In this document: one piece after another, positions 1,778 to 56,300 of the stretch
How positions within the stretch are numbered: the stretch's first letter is position 1
How the letters are laid out: every line of letters starts with the position of its first letter
From: a virus
Lineage: Duplodnaviria; Caudoviricetes
Strand: one strand, 5' to 3'
DNA: 64,000 bases
IMG/VR virus record: IMGVR_UViG_3300021400_000379
Location: 1-64,000 of that record
Translations under genes and position numbers: made by a program
Notes under the pieces: model-generated
Told to the model about the DNA's origin: nothing
Seen by the model: only the letters and a program-made list of their open reading frames with translations
The model's database searches: none

Positions 1778-2045
1778 ACCGAGAATCATAACCGTCGATG
1801 GATTTGAGCTCATCGTGCCGAGGTGCGTGCAGTGTCCCATGAATCTGAAGCTGACCTTCCCGTCGGACAGATTCGATGACGAAGGATATCCCGAAGATCC
1901 CGAGGTCATGTACGCGTGCAATCACCCGAAAGGCCCGGACAGATGGCTCGAGGTCGAGGACAAGGCAAGCGACTTCCCCGAGAAGTGTCCGCTGAAGAGG
2001 AACTCAGCCGTTCCCCCGAAGACGAAGCGCGCGAAGAAGGCCTGA
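1761..2045 (+). CDS. Cys-rich hypothetical protein (CxxCP...C...CPL)
   Basis: GGAGG RBS, Cys pattern. Confidence 0.7.
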   Translation: MTQGTEPRIITVDGFELIVPRCVQCPMNLKLTFPSDRFDDEGYPEDPEVMYACNHPKGPDRWLEVEDKASDFPEKCPLKRNSAVPPKTKRAKKA

Positions 2046-2049
2046 TGAT

Positions 2050-2487
2050 ATGGCACGCGTATACACGGCATACGGAATCAACTATACAGCGGATGAATGG
2101 GCAGACATATTGTTCGTCTCGCCCAGCACGGTGCGTAAGCACGGACAGAACCAAGAAGGCCTGGAGTGCTGGATAGCCGACATGCTCGGAAGCTTCAGGA
2201 ACTCCGTGATGGACAATGTCCAGGCAGGCACGTTCATCGCCGCGATGTATGACAGGGAGGTCTGGTGGAAGATATACGATATGACCCGCGTACTGATGTG
2301 GGAGCTGGACCTCGCGATGAAGAAGCTGAACCGTAAGTCCGCGGTGTTCATGCCCTTGGAGGATGATCTAGAGAGCCTGATCACACTGAGGAACGCCGTC
2401 ACGGATGTAGAGTTCCGCGCACAGGCCCGCTACGAATATATCAACACTCTGGAGAGACGCAGGAGACTGCGCATAGGGGATGAGTGA
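2050..2487 (+). CDS. hypothetical protein, possible N-terminal HTH
   Basis: YTADEWADILFVSPSTVRKH is HTH-like. Confidence 0.65.
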   Translation: MARVYTAYGINYTADEWADILFVSPSTVRKHGQNQEGLECWIADMLGSFRNSVMDNVQAGTFIAAMYDREVWWKIYDMTRVLMWELDLAMKKLNRKSAVFMPLEDDLESLITLRNAVTDVEFRAQARYEYINTLERRRRLRIGDE

Positions 2488-2649
2488 ATGCCGCTCAGAC
2501 GTCTGAACGTGAGATACCGCCTCCGCGAGAACGGAAGATGGTCGGACTGGAGCACGATGAACGTGACGAGGATGAAGCTGATGAGTATAATCGATTTCTA
2601 CGAGAAACACGGGATCTACATGGAGTATGAAGCGAAGGAGGTCGATTGA
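2488..2649 (+). CDS. small hypothetical protein (53 aa)
   Basis: Read from sequence; fills the gap with coupled start and stop. Confidence 0.6.
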   Translation: MPLRRLNVRYRLRENGRWSDWSTMNVTRMKLMSIIDFYEKHGIYMEYEAKEVD

Positions 2650-2915
2650 TGGCGACGATATCCGACATGTACAAGCTCAGGGAGTGCATGGACAAAGCGA
2701 TGCAGAACCCGATGCAGCTTGTATGGTTCGAAAGACTGCCCATATCGTTCGTACCGTCGATGATGTGCTGGGAGATGACGTTCGAGAGTGACCTGACGGT
2801 CTTTTTCAATGATGTGAGCTGTGCGGGCAACTCGATGCAGCTGGAGCTGAACGGAGTTGTCGTCGCGTATTTCACACACATGCACCAGAGACCGCCGGGA
2901 TATGACTCGGAGTAA
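2649..2915 (+). CDS. hypothetical protein
   Basis: AAGGAGG RBS, TGATG coupling. Confidence 0.65.
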   Translation: MATISDMYKLRECMDKAMQNPMQLVWFERLPISFVPSMMCWEMTFESDLTVFFNDVSCAGNSMQLELNGVVVAYFTHMHQRPPGYDSE

Positions 2916-2943
2916 ACCTTTTTGAAAACAGATTTGAAACAAG

Positions 2944-3318
2944 GTGAGAACCATGAAACTTATGACAGAAGAACTGGAGAAAGCGTTCGAAAAGTATCCC
3001 CTGTACTCCCAAGAGGAGGTCGAGGGGAAGGAAGCGAAAGTCGTTGTGAAATATTTCGGAGGCTCGGCCGCCACATGGCTGATAACCGAGGGAGAGAAGC
3101 AGGCCGACGGAGACTGGATGTTCTTCGGATACGTGACGCTCGGACTTCCCGACCCGTTCAGCCCGGGACAGCTCATCTGGGAGTGGGGCTATGTGACCCT
3201 GAAACAGCTTGAGGAGCTGAGATTCCCGCCGTTCGGACTGGGAACCGAGATGGATGTCAGCGTTTCCCCCGGCGAGCACACGGTGAAAGACCTCGTGTTC
3301 ATGGACGGTGACGAGTGA
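2944..3318 (+). CDS. DUF2958-like protein
   Basis: PLYSQE..VVVKYF..ATWLITEG..FFGYV..EWGYVTLKQLEEL pattern. Confidence 0.75.
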   Translation: MRTMKLMTEELEKAFEKYPLYSQEEVEGKEAKVVVKYFGGSAATWLITEGEKQADGDWMFFGYVTLGLPDPFSPGQLIWEWGYVTLKQLEELRFPPFGLGTEMDVSVSPGEHTVKDLVFMDGDE

Positions 3319-3506
3319 TGGCTGAGACACGCATGAGAGAGATCCTGGAGTGGAAGGTGACTTCGACCGTGCCTGACGAGGAGCCCATCGAGGAGACCTT
3401 CGACAGGATAAGCGCGGCGAGACTCTATGCCATGTCTCTCCCTGAGATCAGCACCGTGACCATCGCGCCTGTGATGGTGACCATCGGAGGGAGCAGAGAT
3501 GCCTGA
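3318..3506 (+). CDS. hypothetical protein
   Basis: Coupled ORF. Confidence 0.6.
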   Translation: MAETRMREILEWKVTSTVPDEEPIEETFDRISAARLYAMSLPEISTVTIAPVMVTIGGSRDA

Positions 3507-3774
3507 GGACCGTCCGCTGACAGAGGAGGACAGACAGCTCCTCGGAGCGCTGACATACTACGGAGAAGCGGTGCTCCCGACCGAAGCGTGCACGCTGATG
3601 GGATGGAGTGCGACGCTCTCCCCCGCGTCGAAGATGAGGGCATGGCTCGAAGAGCTGACAGACATGGGTCTGTTGATCGAGTCGATACGCAGACACCGCA
3701 TCGTGTACACCGTGAAGAATCCCAAGTATTGGGAGGGCTACGCGAAGGAGTTCGTGCTGAGGTGTGAGAGATGA
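3499..3774 (+). CDS. winged-helix-like protein
   Basis: WLEELTDMGLLIES...IVYTV is a wHTH-type C-terminus. Confidence 0.55.
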   Translation: MPEDRPLTEEDRQLLGALTYYGEAVLPTEACTLMGWSATLSPASKMRAWLEELTDMGLLIESIRRHRIVYTVKNPKYWEGYAKEFVLRCER

Positions 3775-3950
3775 GCTTCTGCTGTGACAAATGCGACGAT
3801 GCATCTAACGGCGTATACTTCACAGAAGTCTACAGCCCGCTGACCAAACGCCTTAAGACATTCTATCTCTGCGAGAAATGTCAGAACGATCTGTTCGGAC
3901 GCATCGAGAGATGGACAGAAGACAAAACCGATTCGAAAAAGGAGGAATGA
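3771..3950 (+). CDS. small Zn-finger protein (59 aa)
   Basis: CCDKC...LCEKC; ATGA overlaps at both ends. Confidence 0.65.
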   Translation: MSFCCDKCDDASNGVYFTEVYSPLTKRLKTFYLCEKCQNDLFGRIERWTEDKTDSKKEE

Positions 3951-4507
3951 GTATGGATATCTACGCATACATGCAGATTGAGAACTTGGATGATGTGGCG
4001 AAAGCCAACGGAATAGAGAACGTCCCCAGACTCAGGGGATACAGGCTGATGATTAATGAGAAGCCTATACCCGAGGAGAACATAAAGGCGGAGATCGGGA
4101 AGGAGCTGGAGAGCCAATGGCGCGACCTGGAGAGAACGGTCGCGAACATGCTCGAGGACGCACTGGCCCAGAACTTCGACTCATATGAATGCGACAAGTC
4201 ATGGCTGAGCATGCACGAGCACATGATCCGTAATTATGCCGATGACCTGCGTGAGGAGTACGAGATGTTCAACAAGTACGCAGGGCGTGCTGATGTGCTG
4301 ATGATACACTCGCGCATGGGCGGTAAGAAGATCTCCCATTGGGACGACAAGACACACGAACATATCGTAGACTATGACCTCGAGGCCCAGCCTTGGTTCC
4401 TTGACCATGTGAGGGATGCGTTCGACTCGACCTACTGCGATATCTACGCGAAGATCGACCCTGCGACAGTGCCTGAGAAGCTGATACTTCATGATGAGGA
4501 GGAGTGA
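3947..4507 (+). CDS. conserved phage hypothetical protein (paralog of 14346..14822)
   Basis: Shared motifs AKANGI.{1,2}V.RLRGYRLM, DVLMIH.R.GG, PWFL, FD.TYCDIYA.I. Confidence 0.8.
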   Translation: MSMDIYAYMQIENLDDVAKANGIENVPRLRGYRLMINEKPIPEENIKAEIGKELESQWRDLERTVANMLEDALAQNFDSYECDKSWLSMHEHMIRNYADDLREEYEMFNKYAGRADVLMIHSRMGGKKISHWDDKTHEHIVDYDLEAQPWFLDHVRDAFDSTYCDIYAKIDPATVPEKLILHDEEE

Positions 4508-12669: not shown

Positions 12670-13524
12670 ATGGACGACTACATGAAAGATTATGACGCAG
12701 AAGCCGCAGCAGACGATCTGATCAGGTGGATCAGGGCGTTCTTCAAGGGTTCTGGAGGTAAGACCGCGGTTATAGGTATGAGCGGAGGAAAGGACTCCAC
12801 CATCGTAGCAGCCTTGTGTGCAGAAGCATTGGGAAAAGAGAATGTTGTGGGGGTGATTATGCCGAACAGAAGAATGAAAGACGAAAAGACCGCAGTGAAC
12901 GCCGCCATGAAGTATTGTGGTAAATGGATGTACAGGTCTATCGGACCTGCATATCTCCACTTCGCGATCGGTGCAGGTTACAATGAATGCACTCCCAAGA
13001 TGGATAGAGATATCTATTGGGAAGATGGCCGTCACTGGTTGGAGCTTAGGGGGTTAGACGGATATGATCCTCACCTGACTGTGACAGACACAGCAGTCAT
13101 TAACCTCCCCGCTAGATTGAGGATGTGCGCACTGTACTTCGTGGCGCAGTGTGTAGAGCACGGCAGGGTCGCGAATACCTGCAACCTCTCCGAGGACTGG
13201 GTAGGGTATGCAACCCGTTACGGAGATGGAGCAGGAGATTTCGCGCCGTTGCACGATTATACCGTGCAAGAGGTCAAGGCCATCGGACATTATTTGGGCG
13301 TTCCCAAAGAGCTGGTCGAGAAAGTACCCGACGACGGACTCTGCGGCAAGACTGACGAGGACAATCTGGGATTCACATACGAGGTGTTGGACAGGTATAT
13401 CCGCACGGGCGAGTGTGAAGATCAGGCAGTCAAAGAAAAGATAGACCAGATGCATGTGAGGAATCTGTTCAAACTTGAACCGATACCCTATTGCTACAAT
13501 GGGTGGTGGAAAAACAAGGAGTGA
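12670..13524 (+). CDS. nadE: NH3-dependent NAD+ synthetase
   Basis: GMSGGKDS PP-loop, NLPARLRM, TCNLSE, GYATRYGDG, PDDGL, DEDNLG. Confidence 0.93.
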   Translation: MDDYMKDYDAEAAADDLIRWIRAFFKGSGGKTAVIGMSGGKDSTIVAALCAEALGKENVVGVIMPNRRMKDEKTAVNAAMKYCGKWMYRSIGPAYLHFAIGAGYNECTPKMDRDIYWEDGRHWLELRGLDGYDPHLTVTDTAVINLPARLRMCALYFVAQCVEHGRVANTCNLSEDWVGYATRYGDGAGDFAPLHDYTVQEVKAIGHYLGVPKELVEKVPDDGLCGKTDEDNLGFTYEVLDRYIRTGECEDQAVKEKIDQMHVRNLFKLEPIPYCYNGWWKNKE

Positions 13525-13529
13525 TACAT

Positions 13530-13760
13530 ATGAGTGTCGATAAGGCTTGGATTGATTAGTACCAGCAGGCGAAGGATAAATTGTGTAACGCGCTGTCTGA
13601 ATTTGAGTGGCAAGTCCTGGATCAAGTTCCAGATGCATTTTCAGGACATACTGATGAGATGTTTTCTGAAATTTCCAGACTTAGGGTGCAGTTGAGGGTA
13701 TATACCGATTTCCTCTGGGCTGCATACAACCTTGATAAGAAATTCGGAGATGTAGAATAA
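13530..13760 (+). CDS. hypothetical protein with in-frame TAG at codon 10 (76 aa by read-through)
   Basis: AAGGAGTGA RBS, ATG 13530, TAG 13557-13559, open to TAA 13758-13760; fills the gap after nadE. Confidence 0.75.
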
Positions 13761-18230: not shown

Positions 18231-18423
18231 GATCCAGTACCTCCCCGATATTCTCTGTCCTGTTTGCGGAACCGAGATGTCCGTGCAAGACTATCAGGCG
18301 TCGGATTCTTACTCGACTTCCGAAGTATGTACTGAACTGGAATGTTGCTGCGATAAATGCAAGTGTTATCGCACTCTCTATTGCGTATACAAACCAGCAT
18401 ACTATTACTTCGTCAAGGAATAA
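18217..18423 (+). CDS. Zn-ribbon protein
   Basis: CPVC...CDKC..LYCVYK; similar to 19364..19558. Confidence 0.7.
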   Translation: MEKSKIQYLPDILCPVCGTEMSVQDYQASDSYSTSEVCTELECCCDKCKCYRTLYCVYKPAYYYFVKE

Positions 18424-18457
18424 ACCATTTAGCGGGGGCAACCCCGCCAAACTTTTT
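18421..18457 (+). terminator. AAACCATTT plus hairpin terminator
   Basis: GCGGGG-GCAA-CCCCGC followed by AAACTTTTT. Confidence 0.65.
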
Positions 18458-24197: not shown

Positions 24198-24371
24198 ATG
24201 GCAAATGATCAAGAGGAGGGTCGGTATTATGCCGTTCCTCCGTGTATATGTCCGCCTACTTGTAAGAAGTGTAGGTCTAATGCAAATATAGAAATCCTAG
24301 ACCGCCCAGATAGTTGGACTTACTACTGTGTTAAATGCCGTCGCGAGATTGATGCGGAGGAATTCATGTGA
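24198..24371 (+). CDS. Zn-finger microprotein
   Basis: CKKC...CVKC. Confidence 0.6.
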   Translation: MANDQEEGRYYAVPPCICPPTCKKCRSNANIEILDRPDSWTYYCVKCRREIDAEEFM

Positions 24372-24607
24372 CCGAGCCCATAGCTGTAATCGCCACCTGC
24401 ATCAGGTCGTATAATGATAAGCTGGAGCCGATATGGCTCGCAAAGTTACTGAAACTGTAGAAGAAGACGTATGGCCGTACACTGATCTGTACTGCTCTGG
24501 ACCAACTGTCCGATTTATGCCTTTTAGAGGGTGTATGGATGAAACTAGATGGGCGGTGGATCCGGACTCTGAGAGTACCTGAGGACAACCCATGGGGGAC
24601 ACAATAA
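24368..24607 (+). CDS. winged-helix protein with in-frame TAG at codon 31 (79 aa by read-through)
   Basis: GTGA overlap, GGAGG RBS, TAG 24458-24460, ALDQLSDLCLLEGVWMKLDGRWIR wHTH downstream, TAA directly before the terminator. Confidence 0.75.
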
Positions 24608-24650
24608 ACCATTTACCAAGGGGATTACCGATAATTCGGTAATCCCCTTT
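24606..24650 (+). terminator. AAACCATTT plus 14-bp hairpin
   Basis: AAGGGGATTACCGA-TAAT-TCGGTAATCCCCTT. Confidence 0.75.
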
Positions 24651-50929: not shown

Positions 50930-53344
50930 TCAGCTATTATTGAGCTGCGAGACAGTATTGGCCAAATCGAGCTGTTTGCTGATACCGAATGAGTATTTTG
51001 TACGCCCAGAGGGGTATTCTCTTGAATATTTTGACAGTGCCAGCTTCTGCGGATAGTATCTGCTGGGGAATTTCAGCCCCATCGCGGATACTGCGAGGTC
51101 CTGTTCGATATCGGTGAACTGTTTGACCGAGCTTACCGCGGGGAACAGCGCAGACCAGTAAGAATCAGGGCTGGTCTCGCCGTATGACCCGGAATTACGC
51201 TCGTTCGCGGTGAATGAGACCGATGTTCTGGTCTCTCCCCAATAGGCGAGCACCATATACAGCACCTTTCTGGCATAATACTCGGGCAGGACTGCGAAAT
51301 ACTGTGTCAGGTCAAGAGTATACAGCCCAGGGCCTTCCCCGATATCCTTGATGGACTGCTCAGCCATGTCGCGGATGCTCGCATACTCGGGATTTTCCGA
51401 AGATACGGAGTATTTTACGCATGGGCCGTCTCCCGAAAGGGGAGAGATCCATTCTCCGATGATAGGGTCGCTCAGGTCGTCCGCTTTATACCTGCCGAAC
51501 TAGATCGTACGGGTCTTGACGGCCTTTTCCAGGCTCGTATATACGTTATATTTCACCGCGACCGTGTTATATGTCGTGGTAGAACCCTGTGCGTCCTGAG
51601 ATACAGTCCCGTAAACCCTTCCCATCAGACGGTCATATGTACGTTCGCTGTGCAACTCGACGGAATCCAGAGTAGCCCTCCAGTCCTCGGGGCTCATTTC
51701 AATTGCCTGGATGTTTCCCATCGCCTCGTCCCACCCGAATGATGGGTTGCTGCCCATATCAAGACCTGATCTCACGATGAGCCTGTTGAACGCTGTCCTC
51801 TTACGCTCGTCAGACCAGTCCTCGGATGCGGTACTGGGTATGTTCTCTGGCACTTCATCTGCCAATTTGGTATAATCTATGATATAAGCCCTGCTGTTCG
51901 CGAAGAATATGCGTGCGTTGCATATCATCGCGCATATCTGGAGGGTCGTCCAGATGTTCGCCCCCTTGATTATGGGGATGAACTCATCATGTGCGCTACC
52001 GAGCACGTCTAGAGTCATATCCTTCACGACGTCCTCATCGGTATGGATTGGTGCAGACCTGACCGCATTCACGGAAATCTTCGACACGTCCACGTTGGAT
52101 ATGATCTGGTAAGGCAAGTAATAGTACCGTGAGTACAGCCCCGTACCGATGATATCCAGGATCATCGACAGCGGATCGGTCCAAGTGATGTTTGACGTGA
52201 ATTTCATACCGCGGATTTCGCTGATTCCGCAATATGCGATCATATCGTAGGAATTATCCCGCAGGGCACACTCAGTCACGATATATTCCCCCCTGCCTAC
52301 GGCATTTATCTGCAGCTTGCTCTCACCGGGCTGGATTATCGCGATTACCTTATCAGTCTGCATGTTCACATTCCCAGCCAGTTCGGGATATGTTCTCATG
52401 AATGCCCTTTTGGATAATTTTAGGGACACGTGCTCAAAAGGCTCCTCCAGTCCGCCGGTCATTGTATATGAGCTCACCAAGTCAAGACCCATATACCCTC
52501 CGTGCGAGGGGTCTGGTTGACCCTGTCTCGACCCGATGGTCAACGCGTATTCGGGAGTCTGTATCAGCACCCCGTTCAACTTCTTGACCGCCCTGACCTT
52601 GATGGACGTGTCCCTGGTGAAATACCACTCGTTATACTCGTTATACGCATTGTAACAGCTTGCGGTATTCAGATTGTCATAGATGGGGATATATCTGAGG
52701 GCGGGGTTCTTCTCATATAGCTCCCTAGGAATTGCCTCATACTCTCCGTCTATGTGAGTGAAGAGCACACTATCCTCGTGCCCCTCGGACAGTTTCTCGG
52801 TCAGCCTGCCGCCTACCACTACGACCATGGACCCCGTGAGGTATTCCGAGTCTCCGCAGTTCAAGTCGATCTCCACTTCTTGTACGAAGATGTTCACCGC
52901 ATGGCTGGAAGGTAACATCAGAGTTTGAGGGATGAATGTCTCTGTATCCTTTGTGATGTCCTCTGCATTCTTGGTATTGATGAACATGGTGTAACCGTCG
53001 GTCTTGATCTGCCACCTGTTTGCCAAGGACATGAGCGCGTCGCACCATTTGGCATTAGTCCATTTCCAAGAGGTCTTATCATAGTCGTCATCGTACACAT
53101 AGGTCATATATGTGCCGTTAGGCAACTTTTTCAAGGGGTTCTTGCGGGCAAATGTGAATGTATAACTGTTCGAGGTGTTGGATTCCAGCGCGTATGTCGA
53201 ATCTGTAGGCAGATTAGGGATGGGGATTGCGGTAATAGCCTTGTTCAGTGTGTCTGTAATCCCTGTCACTATCCCCAGATCATACATCGTTCCTGAATTC
53301 GTGCTGAAGCCCGTCCTTATCTGGATTAGTCCATATTCATCCAT
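50930..53344 (-). CDS. tail or baseplate protein, 804 aa by read-through of TAG at codon 615
   Basis: Track ORFs 51500..53368 and 50930..51367 are in frame and joined by 44 stop-free codons after the TAG at 51500-51502. Confidence 0.75.
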
Positions 53345-53348
53345 ATAT

Positions 53349-56300
53349 TCACCCGTTGTTAATGACATCTCCGAGGAATTCTATAATTATTACTCCGTCT
53401 GCTCCAGCTCCACCAGGCGTGGTATATGTGCAAGCCCCATAATCTAAGGCCTTGTGAACATAATTCACTGTATAATTCACAGTGTTAGTCACAACGCCTA
53501 GTGCCGCCTTCCATGTGTTTATATTGAACGCATTAATTATGGCGCCCCCTGGGGAAAATGCATGCATCTGTTGTTCTATCGGTACTTTGACTACCTCCAC
53601 CATTTCTTTGATGTTCAGGTCATAATCCTGCCACCTGAGCTTAGAGCATCCGCCTCCGCCGTACCTTGCGTTGCCTGCAGAGGAGGTTACAGTACATGTC
53701 GGGTCCTTGGTAGAGGTGGCTGTTTGACTTAAGATGCACCCCCCGAGACTTCTGATGAGCTTCGCCTGAGCTTGCCTGCCGGAGAATTCTGCGTCGCCTG
53801 TCGCAGACCTGCCAGAAACGACCCAGATATTGGAGCTGGCCCGATAATGCCTATTAATGTTCGCCGCAGCTCCCCCAGAACTCGGATATACAACAGGATT
53901 GTTGTTCGGGTATGCCCCGTATCCCATACCTCCCCTGATAGAGTCGGGATCAGCCTCGCCCGTAGAGCTGTTCTTCGATAATTCTCCATCTGTGGGGGAC
54001 CCCTGGGACCCTTTGATGGCCTCTCCCGAGTCCCATCTGAGGTCCACATCCTTGCTGGTGGAGTTCTCCCCTCCGTTATAGGCTCCTGTACCTCTTTTAT
54101 CTCTGCCACCGGCCTCTCCGCCTCCGGCACTGACGATTAATGCACTGCCATATCTGATTTCAGAGCTCTCACCATTGATTTCCGACGCTCCGCCCGCACC
54201 CAAGGTCAACGAGAATTCCCTGATACCCTCTTTGGAGATATGCACGGTCCTGGCAACGGTAAATCCGCTTCCGCCGCCCCCGCCGACCATGAATGACGCG
54301 AGCTTGAACCTTATAATGTCATTCCCGCCAGTGATTTTCTCACCTGTGGCATAGCTGGAGCCGCCACCTCCGCCTCCGCCTACGGCGATACATTTAGCAT
54401 ATGCGTGGGTGTTTCCCTCCAATATCGTATTCCACAAGGTATCATGAGGGATTCTGACCTCGTAGGATCCGTTCACGGGGGCCTCGAAGACTACTACACC
54501 CAAGACCCGCCTGTATTTTATCGTGAACACCTGAGTGGAATCGATGTCTTGACCCTCCTCCTTGATGGTTTGCAGAGTAATCGGAAGCTCATCCCCGGGA
54601 TAGGCATACCTTGTCACGGTCTTCTTCTCCATCACGGTAGACCCTTCCGACACGGGCGCACTCTCTTCTACGGTATATGCCCAGCATGCGGGCTCAGTAC
54701 CCTCTTCTTGGAGCACGTCCTCAGGGAACTGGGGGGCGATATAGACCCCATTGTAGGTTTCAAGCGTGATTCCTTTAACTTGTCCATCACGGTTGACATA
54801 TCTGAATACGATCGACTGCTTCTTGATTGCGTTCCTTCCGCGCATGGATGCGACGGTAAACTGGAGGGTAAGTGTTACGCCTGCCCTGTTATATGGATAC
54901 TGGAGCGGTGCAGAGAGGAACACGTTCTTATCGATCTTGGGGTACCCGTTATAGGATATGAGCGGGTCGAGGATGAGATTGTACCCTCCGCTCCTTTCCT
55001 CCTTGACGTCGTAGTTGGAATTCTGCCACTGGTCGAAGAAGGTCTTGACATATTTCACCCATTTGTTCGTCGACCAATCCGCGGGATTATGGCTCCTGTC
55101 ATTAGGTTTGGCAGGTGGGGTGCGGGTGACGGTGATTATGCATGTCTCCAAATTACCCAGATCTATGATATAGTTGAACTCCGAGGATTTTGTGAGCATC
55201 GGCGATTGATTCAGCTGCACCCTCACCTTTCTGCGGACGTTGGTGATTGCCAGGTTAGGCTGGGTCTCCGTGGACAGGTATAACTTCTGCATATCCTCCT
55301 TGTGTTTCGTAGGATATTTGGTCACTACACACAGCGGGGCAAGGGGCAGTTCATCCAATATCTTCAGCAGGAGCACATTGTGCTTCTCCTTCGGACTCTC
55401 GCCTTGTACCGCCTCTGGGTATGTGACGAAATCCACCGCATAGAGTCCTTCATCAGCCCTTTCGGACACGAATGTTGCCCCGAATGTCTCCACCGACACA
55501 TACTGAGTCGTAGCACCCTGCACTCTTGCCTCGAAGTGTTGGGTCTGTTTGCCCGTGGCCGCCAGCCATGACGCATATATCTCGTTGAATATCCAGTATC
55601 CGCTGGAATCCGTCACGAGCTTATACGTTCTGATCTCGGCAGGCTTCTGGGGGAGCCTCATATCCAGAGTATGCGCATATTTGTTAGATAATACAATCCA
55701 GTTTCCTGTATTGTCCATGTCCGAGCGGACCTGGGTATAACTTGCGTCCAATATGCTGACTCCCTTGGTCTCGGTAAGGGATGGCGTGAGCAGGGTATAA
55801 TCTGGGTTGGTCGGGTCCACATATATCCTGACTGTCTCTCCAGGAGTAAGTGTCAGGGTGACCTGTGTCTCACCAGATCCATTGATTGGTATCAACTCCG
55901 ACGAAGGATCGGACGGGTTGCTGAACCTGTACATGAGTCCAGTAACGTAACCCACTCCCGCCTGGAATATCACTTTCGGGAACTGGGAGAAGGGAATCGT
56001 CACATCCAGCGACTCGCCGGGAATCACAAACGACTTGGCCCATAACGGATTCGCAATAGCCATCACATACAGCTCCACGGTCGCTTGGTTCCCGTAGGGG
56101 ATCGCCAGGTCGGTGACATGAGAGATAACATTGTCCTGGGTATTGAACGCGATTGCTCTCACGGTGTCGGTAGTCTGGTCAATCCAACTGACCGCGGGAG
56201 TGATATCCAAGTACTCGTAGGTCTCATGGTCCTCGGTCTCCCACGCTACCGGGCCGATACAGCTATATTCTGTGCTGGCCCAAGCCCATTCAAGGTTCTT

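Follow-up and report, generated by a model that had tools for sequence, protein, structure and literature searches.

Gene layout and signals around an internal TAG

The window analysed here is a stretch of 64,000 nucleotides of viral DNA and forms part of a virus record of 99,638 bp that carries terminal repeats. On the + strand of the window, a short Cys-rich ORF is followed by a winged-helix gene whose frame contains only one TAG and ends in a TAA at 24605-24607 (Table 1). The GTG start codon of this gene (24368-24370) shares bases with the TGA stop codon of the upstream ORF (24369-24371), forming a GTGA overlap, and the two genes are translationally coupled. Comparison of the upstream ORF with Pfam produced zinc-ribbon matches that were weak, all of them under the cut-off.

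Table 1. Positions of the genes and signals discussed in the text
Feature	Position	Strand	Details and basis
Upstream 57-aa Cys-rich zinc-ribbon-like ORF	24198..24371	+	ORF list
GGAGG ribosome-binding site, 7 nt 5' of the GTG	24356..24360	+	read from sequence
Winged-helix gene	24368..24607	+	79 codons; GTG start, TAA stop; translation
TAG in frame at codon 31, where helix 2 ends	24458..24460	+	translation and AlphaFold2 model
AAACCATTT motif and 14-bp perfect hairpin	24606..24649	+	folding compared with shuffles
Tail hub gene with TAG at codon 623	50930..53368	-	homology to 851-882-aa relatives

The 3' end of the winged-helix gene is equally compact. The AAACCATTT motif (24606-24614) shares bases with the TAA, and beyond it lies the hairpin at 24618-24649, for which we calculated a folding energy of -29 kcal/mol and a z-score of -6.1, with 0 of 200 shuffled sequences folding as well. 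This hairpin is the probable end of the transcript. Alternatively, it is possibly a protein-binding palindrome or operator; the palindrome occurs in one copy in the whole virus genome, and it was rejected as a repeated operator. A similar arrangement is found at 18420-18450 where, as at 24605-24649, a TAA lies inside TAAACCATTT and a GC-rich hairpin follows. The 9-mer is present in 4 copies in the window versus 0.57 expected, and its combination with a hairpin at these two sites may represent a shared transcript-end element. A first-pass annotation of this DNA had described a frame with an internal TAG, a GTGA overlap, a GGAGG ribosome-binding site and a TAA beside a hairpin, all of which we confirmed in the sequence.

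By a composition estimate, 79 codons free of TAA and TGA are expected by chance in about 5% of frames, and two antisense ORFs, one of 82 and one of 90 aa, are likewise open under the standard code. Openness of the frame by itself is weak evidence for a gene, so the case for one rests on homology and fold. The codon-usage score of the frame is 0.34 before the TAG, which is typical of coding sequence, and -0.008 after it, which is ambiguous and lies under the 5th percentile of long-gene windows.

A protein family and a fold on both sides of the TAG

Searches with the single viral winged-helix protein yielded no family match in Pfam (E <= 1), PHROGs or PADLOC and only weak matches in NCBIfam, to archaeal winged-helix regulators; likewise, a word-indexed search with this protein found no homologs. 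An exhaustive phmmer search of 1.84 billion representatives returned 20 matches at E <= 1e-3, of which 18 are genuine small relatives of 73-155 aa. Their alignments extend from residue 2 to residue 74 of the query and so include sequence before and after the TAG. The remaining two, the top match P0005 and P0019, are TPR/CHAT repeat proteins that we rejected as repeat-driven false positives and excluded from every alignment. A profile built from the 18 relatives recovered 49 proteins, mostly of about 96 aa, with E-values down to 6e-33; among them are one from a Methanomethylophilaceae MAG and two named PadR by JGI. When the 99.6-kb virus was translated in six frames, TAG being masked, and compared with a profile made without the query, the sole match was 24368-24607(+), as one domain of 69.6 bits (E 2.7e-20) that runs straight through the TAG.

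The alignment places a sense residue at the TAG in every one of 60 relatives, and in most of them this residue is Met, Leu or Phe (M 36, L 14, F 7, I 2, T 1). Seven conserved positions of the ~96-aa family (W23, L27, D45, L47, D49, W57 and W64) are kept in the viral protein; four of these, D45, D49, W57 and W64, are invariant, and every one of the four comes after the TAG. On average, the viral protein is 30% identical to its relatives upstream of the TAG and 32% identical downstream. Cellular members have an N-terminal extension, about 20 further residues beyond the wing and a C-terminal helix; the viral protein lacks both the extension and the helix.

Homologs of the winged-helix gene occur in 15 of 201 Methanomassiliicoccales genomes. 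No in-frame TAG was present in the cellular homologs examined; an apparent internal TAG in the homolog of host locus L008 proved to be its terminator. Queries with the winged-helix gene, its downstream neighbour, the methylase, the tail hub, P0027, P0010, P0006 and P0074 uncovered no orthologous locus in viral_contigs, metagenome_contigs or phage records, and the winged-helix gene is absent from L021, L022 and L023.

AlphaFold2, run on the viral protein with the family alignment, gave a model with a pLDDT of 92.2 and a pTM of 0.81. The predicted elements (H3-17, H24-31, H37-49, E54-60 and E63-69) form a three-helix bundle followed by a beta-hairpin wing. All top Foldseek matches are winged-helix proteins, the best being PadR with TM 0.60-0.70, and VIA-align superposes 74 of the 79 residues on MepR/MarR with Z 10.8 and an rmsd of 1.9 A, compared with Z 9.6 for a PadR. 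All three methods thus assign the viral protein to the winged helix-turn-helix fold.

PadR proteins (PF03551; Brachyspira PadR 9qbc/9qbd, M. tuberculosis Rv3488 5zi8, LmrR) have the same winged-helix core, and their recognition helix and wing show a pattern similar to the family consensus LDkLfDlG.I.G.W....G.WtRt. PadR is also the best PDB profile match (E 0.043), and 5 of 19 relatives have a weak PadR match (best E 3.7e-4). However, the viral protein has no Pfam match at E <= 1 and so falls short of the PF03551 gathering score. It ends 10 residues past wing strand 2, without the PadR dimerisation helix, and the ~96-aa family differs from PadR in having a conserved Trp pair and two Asp of its own. 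The best superpositions are on MarR/MepR structures (5ffx, 3vod), with Z 10.8-10.4, an rmsd of about 2 A and 72-74 of 79 residues, although sequence identity to these is only 8-17%. MarR proteins are about 140 aa long with N- and C-terminal dimerisation helices, whereas the 79-aa viral protein consists of the core only and has no such flanking helices. Stf76 of pSSVx (2mlg), at Foldseek rank 11, is likewise a stand-alone winged helix, about 80 aa long and carried by an archaeal mobile element, but it has no detectable sequence relationship to the viral protein and comes from a different host phylum.

Given this homology and fold, the frame at 24368-24607(+) is beyond what chance would produce and, judged by its sequence, is a genuine gene in a family of uncharacterised ~96-aa proteins seen so far in Methanomassiliicoccales. 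The first-pass annotation had called a winged-helix protein with the TAG inside its domain, and both the fold and the family homology bear this out. It had named profile and structure searches with the read-through protein as the check, and a lack of homology across the TAG as what would speak against the call; in these searches the family and the winged-helix fold both cross the TAG, with homology over residues 2-74, and the residue that homologs align to it is the one reported above, mostly Met, Leu or Phe. It had also held that truncation at the TAG would remove the DNA-binding part, and a product ending there would indeed retain helices 1-2 (30 aa) and lose the recognition helix and the wing. 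The description as a transcription regulator stands in part: the winged-helix fold agrees with it, and the regulation itself would follow from that fold only, no target site having been found. On the strength of the model, we expect that the viral protein binds DNA and regulates transcription.

TAG as a probable sense codon in the virus and its presumed host

The tail hub gene provides an independent case of an internal TAG. Its 851-882-aa relatives cover 99% of residues 480-812 and are continuous across the TAG; at this position they share a conserved Trp within RT[LI]W[FY]G. The hub is 50% identical to its relatives downstream of the TAG and 43% identical upstream. In addition, the gene call of a 56%-identical hub relative (P0074, 642 aa) ends at exactly the TAG residue. 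This match suggests that a stop-like codon, inferred in the relative from the end of its gene call, is conserved at this position between diverged viruses. Both TAGs, at the hub Trp and at the winged-helix Met/Leu/Phe, replace bulky hydrophobic residues whose codons are one base change away (TGG or TTG to TAG), an agreement that rests on n = 2.

We also examined how TAG is used elsewhere in the virus. With the standard code, 79 non-overlapping ORFs of at least 120 aa were called, and TAG is the stop of 7. Better-scoring genes lie on the opposite strand of four of the 7, and a fifth shares its DNA with a gene that fits better in a different frame, leaving the tail hub and a possible small membrane gene. 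The latter, G000:C1:85342-85761(-), lies beyond the window; it is a small, hydrophobic, membrane-like ORF and the only plausible gene that ends in TAG. Another stop follows 4 codons after its TAG, such that read-through adds just 5 residues. Joining 85342-85761 and 84899-85330 into a single frame was rejected, as the two are in different frames. We scored 107 genes by codon usage; 85 of them stop at TGA and 22 at TAA, and TGA and TAA likewise close the ORFs that lie in the gaps between scored genes and agree with them in strand. Although about 23% of the stop-like trinucleotides in the virus genome are TAG, plausible genes that terminate on it number 0-1 among about 110-120. TAG thus terminates essentially no gene of this virus, and reading through it creates no long out-of-frame overlaps.

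Further small ORFs with a single in-frame TAG are found at G000:C1:91714-91974(-), at 92090-92458(-) and in the window at 13491-13760(+), and in the second of these, Cys-rich modules flank the TAG on both sides. The internal-TAG ORFs other than the hub had no match in Pfam or PHROG, and of this set only the hub is confirmed by homology. A stretch of 675 codons in the window at 2004-4031(-), open but for 7 TAGs, was considered as a Pyl-rich gene and rejected as an artefact because it is antisense to five better-scoring + strand genes.

Taken as a whole, the virus almost certainly has its TAG codons translated as an amino acid throughout. None of the 9 tRNAs in the whole virus is a tRNA-CUA. Since the virus has no tRNA-CUA of its own and TAG is a sense codon genome-wide, the full-length winged-helix product needs amber decoding, and the dependence proposed in the first-pass annotation is supported by inference from these two observations.

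Homologs of the hub are present in 4 of 201 Methanomassiliicoccales genomes, and the match to one such genome is continuous across the TAG position (E 1e-35). In each of these four genomes, which hold related proviruses, PylRS scores over the curated cut-off, with 259-279 bits versus 178. The virus probably infects methane-making archaea, with a putative Methanomassiliicoccales-like host, and its TAG is most likely decoded as pyrrolysine (Pyl) in a manner like that of "Code 34".

Published work on such archaea offers close parallels. In "Ca. M. alvus", 1.6% of terminators are TAG, 16 extra Pyl proteins are predicted, and a new in-frame amber is described as "a stable mutation" (PMC4153887). 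Proteomics of M. alvi located Pyl at TAG genome-wide and led to the proposal of Genetic Code 34 (bioRxiv 10.1101/2024.09.30.615893). In hosts of the Code 34 type, TAG-to-Pyl decoding is reported to be constitutive (PMC4153887; bioRxiv 10.1101/2024.09.30.615893). The "Category 1" genes of Code 34 and the extra Pyl proteins of "Ca. M. alvus" likewise have a single TAG inside a conserved domain, with a sense codon in homologs, and the winged-helix gene shares with Category 1 genes homology on both sides of the TAG. Code 34 archaea have few TAG terminators and need no special RNA element for decoding, and the same is true of the virus. Unlike these archaea, the virus is without pyl genes or a tRNA-Pyl of its own and relies on the code of its host. 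Our literature search found no description of Pyl codons in archaeal viruses.

A probable tolerated Pyl codon and the alternatives to it

We consider it likely that 24368-24607(+) is a genuine winged-helix gene in which the TAG at codon 31 is read by host tRNA-Pyl under a TAG-as-sense code, as a tolerated substitution and not as a switch. The viral copy would be a trimmed version of the host's ~96-aa winged-helix family. Because the virus brings no suppressor tRNA, host tRNA-Pyl must read codon 31; the host ribosome would use it there to insert pyrrolysine as the last residue of helix 2, in place of the Met, Leu or Phe of the relatives. Such decoding would be the normal mode of translation for this virus, in which TAG is shunned as a terminator and present inside other genes. 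If TAG is normally a sense codon in the virus, codon 31 looks like a tolerated substitution rather than a dedicated switch, one that would have arisen in a single step (for example, TTG to TAG) and become fixed under the TAG-as-sense code. An ordinary gene under an unusual code is also a simpler reading than a special sensor.

A different account of the same codon is that the virus captured a winged-helix gene and recently lost its function through a nonsense mutation at codon 31, leaving a pseudogene from which just 30 aa are translated. No other family member that we saw has a TAG inside the gene, the codon-usage score of the viral copy becomes ambiguous after that codon, and our searches found no close viral relative that bears on whether the TAG is conserved. 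However, this virus does not end genes on TAG, and its tail hub needs a TAG to be read through. All of the invariant residues, along with an unbroken frame of 48 codons, are kept downstream of codon 31, where identity to relatives is not below that upstream, and the stop, the hairpin and the gene spacing all suit the long form of the protein. We therefore regard a pseudogene as unlikely.

The first-pass annotation had gone further and proposed a sensor of host Pyl status. Here, decoding of UAG would be ambiguous and the yield of full-length regulator would track charged tRNA-Pyl, thereby coupling viral expression to the methylamine/Pyl state of the host. There is precedent for ambiguous decoding in Methanosarcina: UAG serves as both stop and Pyl in M. 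acetivorans (PMC12626013), and read-through there follows Pyl demand and tRNA-Pyl charging (PMC12626013, PMC13663744). The position of the TAG, early in the gene and ahead of the DNA-binding parts, would also suit such a role. Against this, the hub and several other genes also have a TAG, and nothing singles out the winged-helix gene among them. No structured RNA stands out 3' of the codon-31 TAG (folding z = 0.23), and the near absence of TAG terminators fits constitutive decoding by the host, as has been argued for M. alvus (PMC4153887). The sensor proposal thus finds no support beyond the codon itself, since the hub shares the need for decoding, no RNA structure accompanies the TAG and decoding is reported to be constitutive in Code 34 hosts, and we rate its probability as very low.

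The neighbours of the cellular homologs raise another possibility. A PRTase-like gene (335-362 aa) adjoins the ~96-aa winged-helix gene in 7 of the 15 host loci, and an HD-CE gene (PF24391, above the cut-off) does so in at least 2. Loci with PRTase-like or HD-CE neighbours are L004, L006, L007, L008, L012, L013 and L018, examples being L012:420-1505(+), L012:1983-2786(+) and L013:468-1328(+). In PADLOC, host neighbours are weakly similar to a retron-type PRTase effector and to the HD region of a defence reverse transcriptase. These PRTase-like and HD-CE neighbours suggest a small conflict or defence module, and the three genes together, winged-helix, PRTase-like and HD-CE, may form a unit that is perhaps defensive. 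A literature search on PRTase-CE and HD-CE returned nothing relevant. The PRTase-like neighbour at L008:1998-2693(+) has an in-frame TAG of its own, and its similarity to an ortholog stops 3 residues later; this TAG is uninformative, as it may mark a truncated gene rather than a Pyl site. The trimmed, monomer-like viral copy, which has no C-terminal helix, could conceivably be turned on its host and silence the module by occupying its operators or poisoning the host dimer, with its yield set by the host's supply of Pyl-tRNA through codon 31. This idea is a long shot; if it were true, the protein would be a Pyl-containing viral anti-defence regulator.

Finally, that the real feature is the 82-aa antisense ORF 24364-24612(-), or a non-coding 3' region, is extremely improbable: although the two antisense ORFs are open under the standard code, the family profile matches the + frame only (69.6 bits), antisense frames have low codon-usage scores, all neighbours up to 26329 are on the + strand, and the fold of the + frame is confident.

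Both kinds of element at this locus are known: winged helices that resemble PadR and MarR, and genes that carry an internal TAG under a Pyl code. The viral gene joins the two in a small, clean case that can be interpreted structurally, with a TAG, probably read as Pyl, at a conserved hydrophobic position. The winged-helix family as defined here has no Pfam or NCBIfam model and is linked to host PRTase-like and HD genes. Standard gene calling misses the viral member, seeing 30 codons and then "non-coding" sequence. Because of such misses, viruses of Pyl-decoding archaea need to be annotated with TAG as a sense codon, or else regulators and structural genes will be lost or shortened. For the virus itself, the finding means that it must borrow the expanded code of its host, a dependence that narrows the range of hosts it can use.
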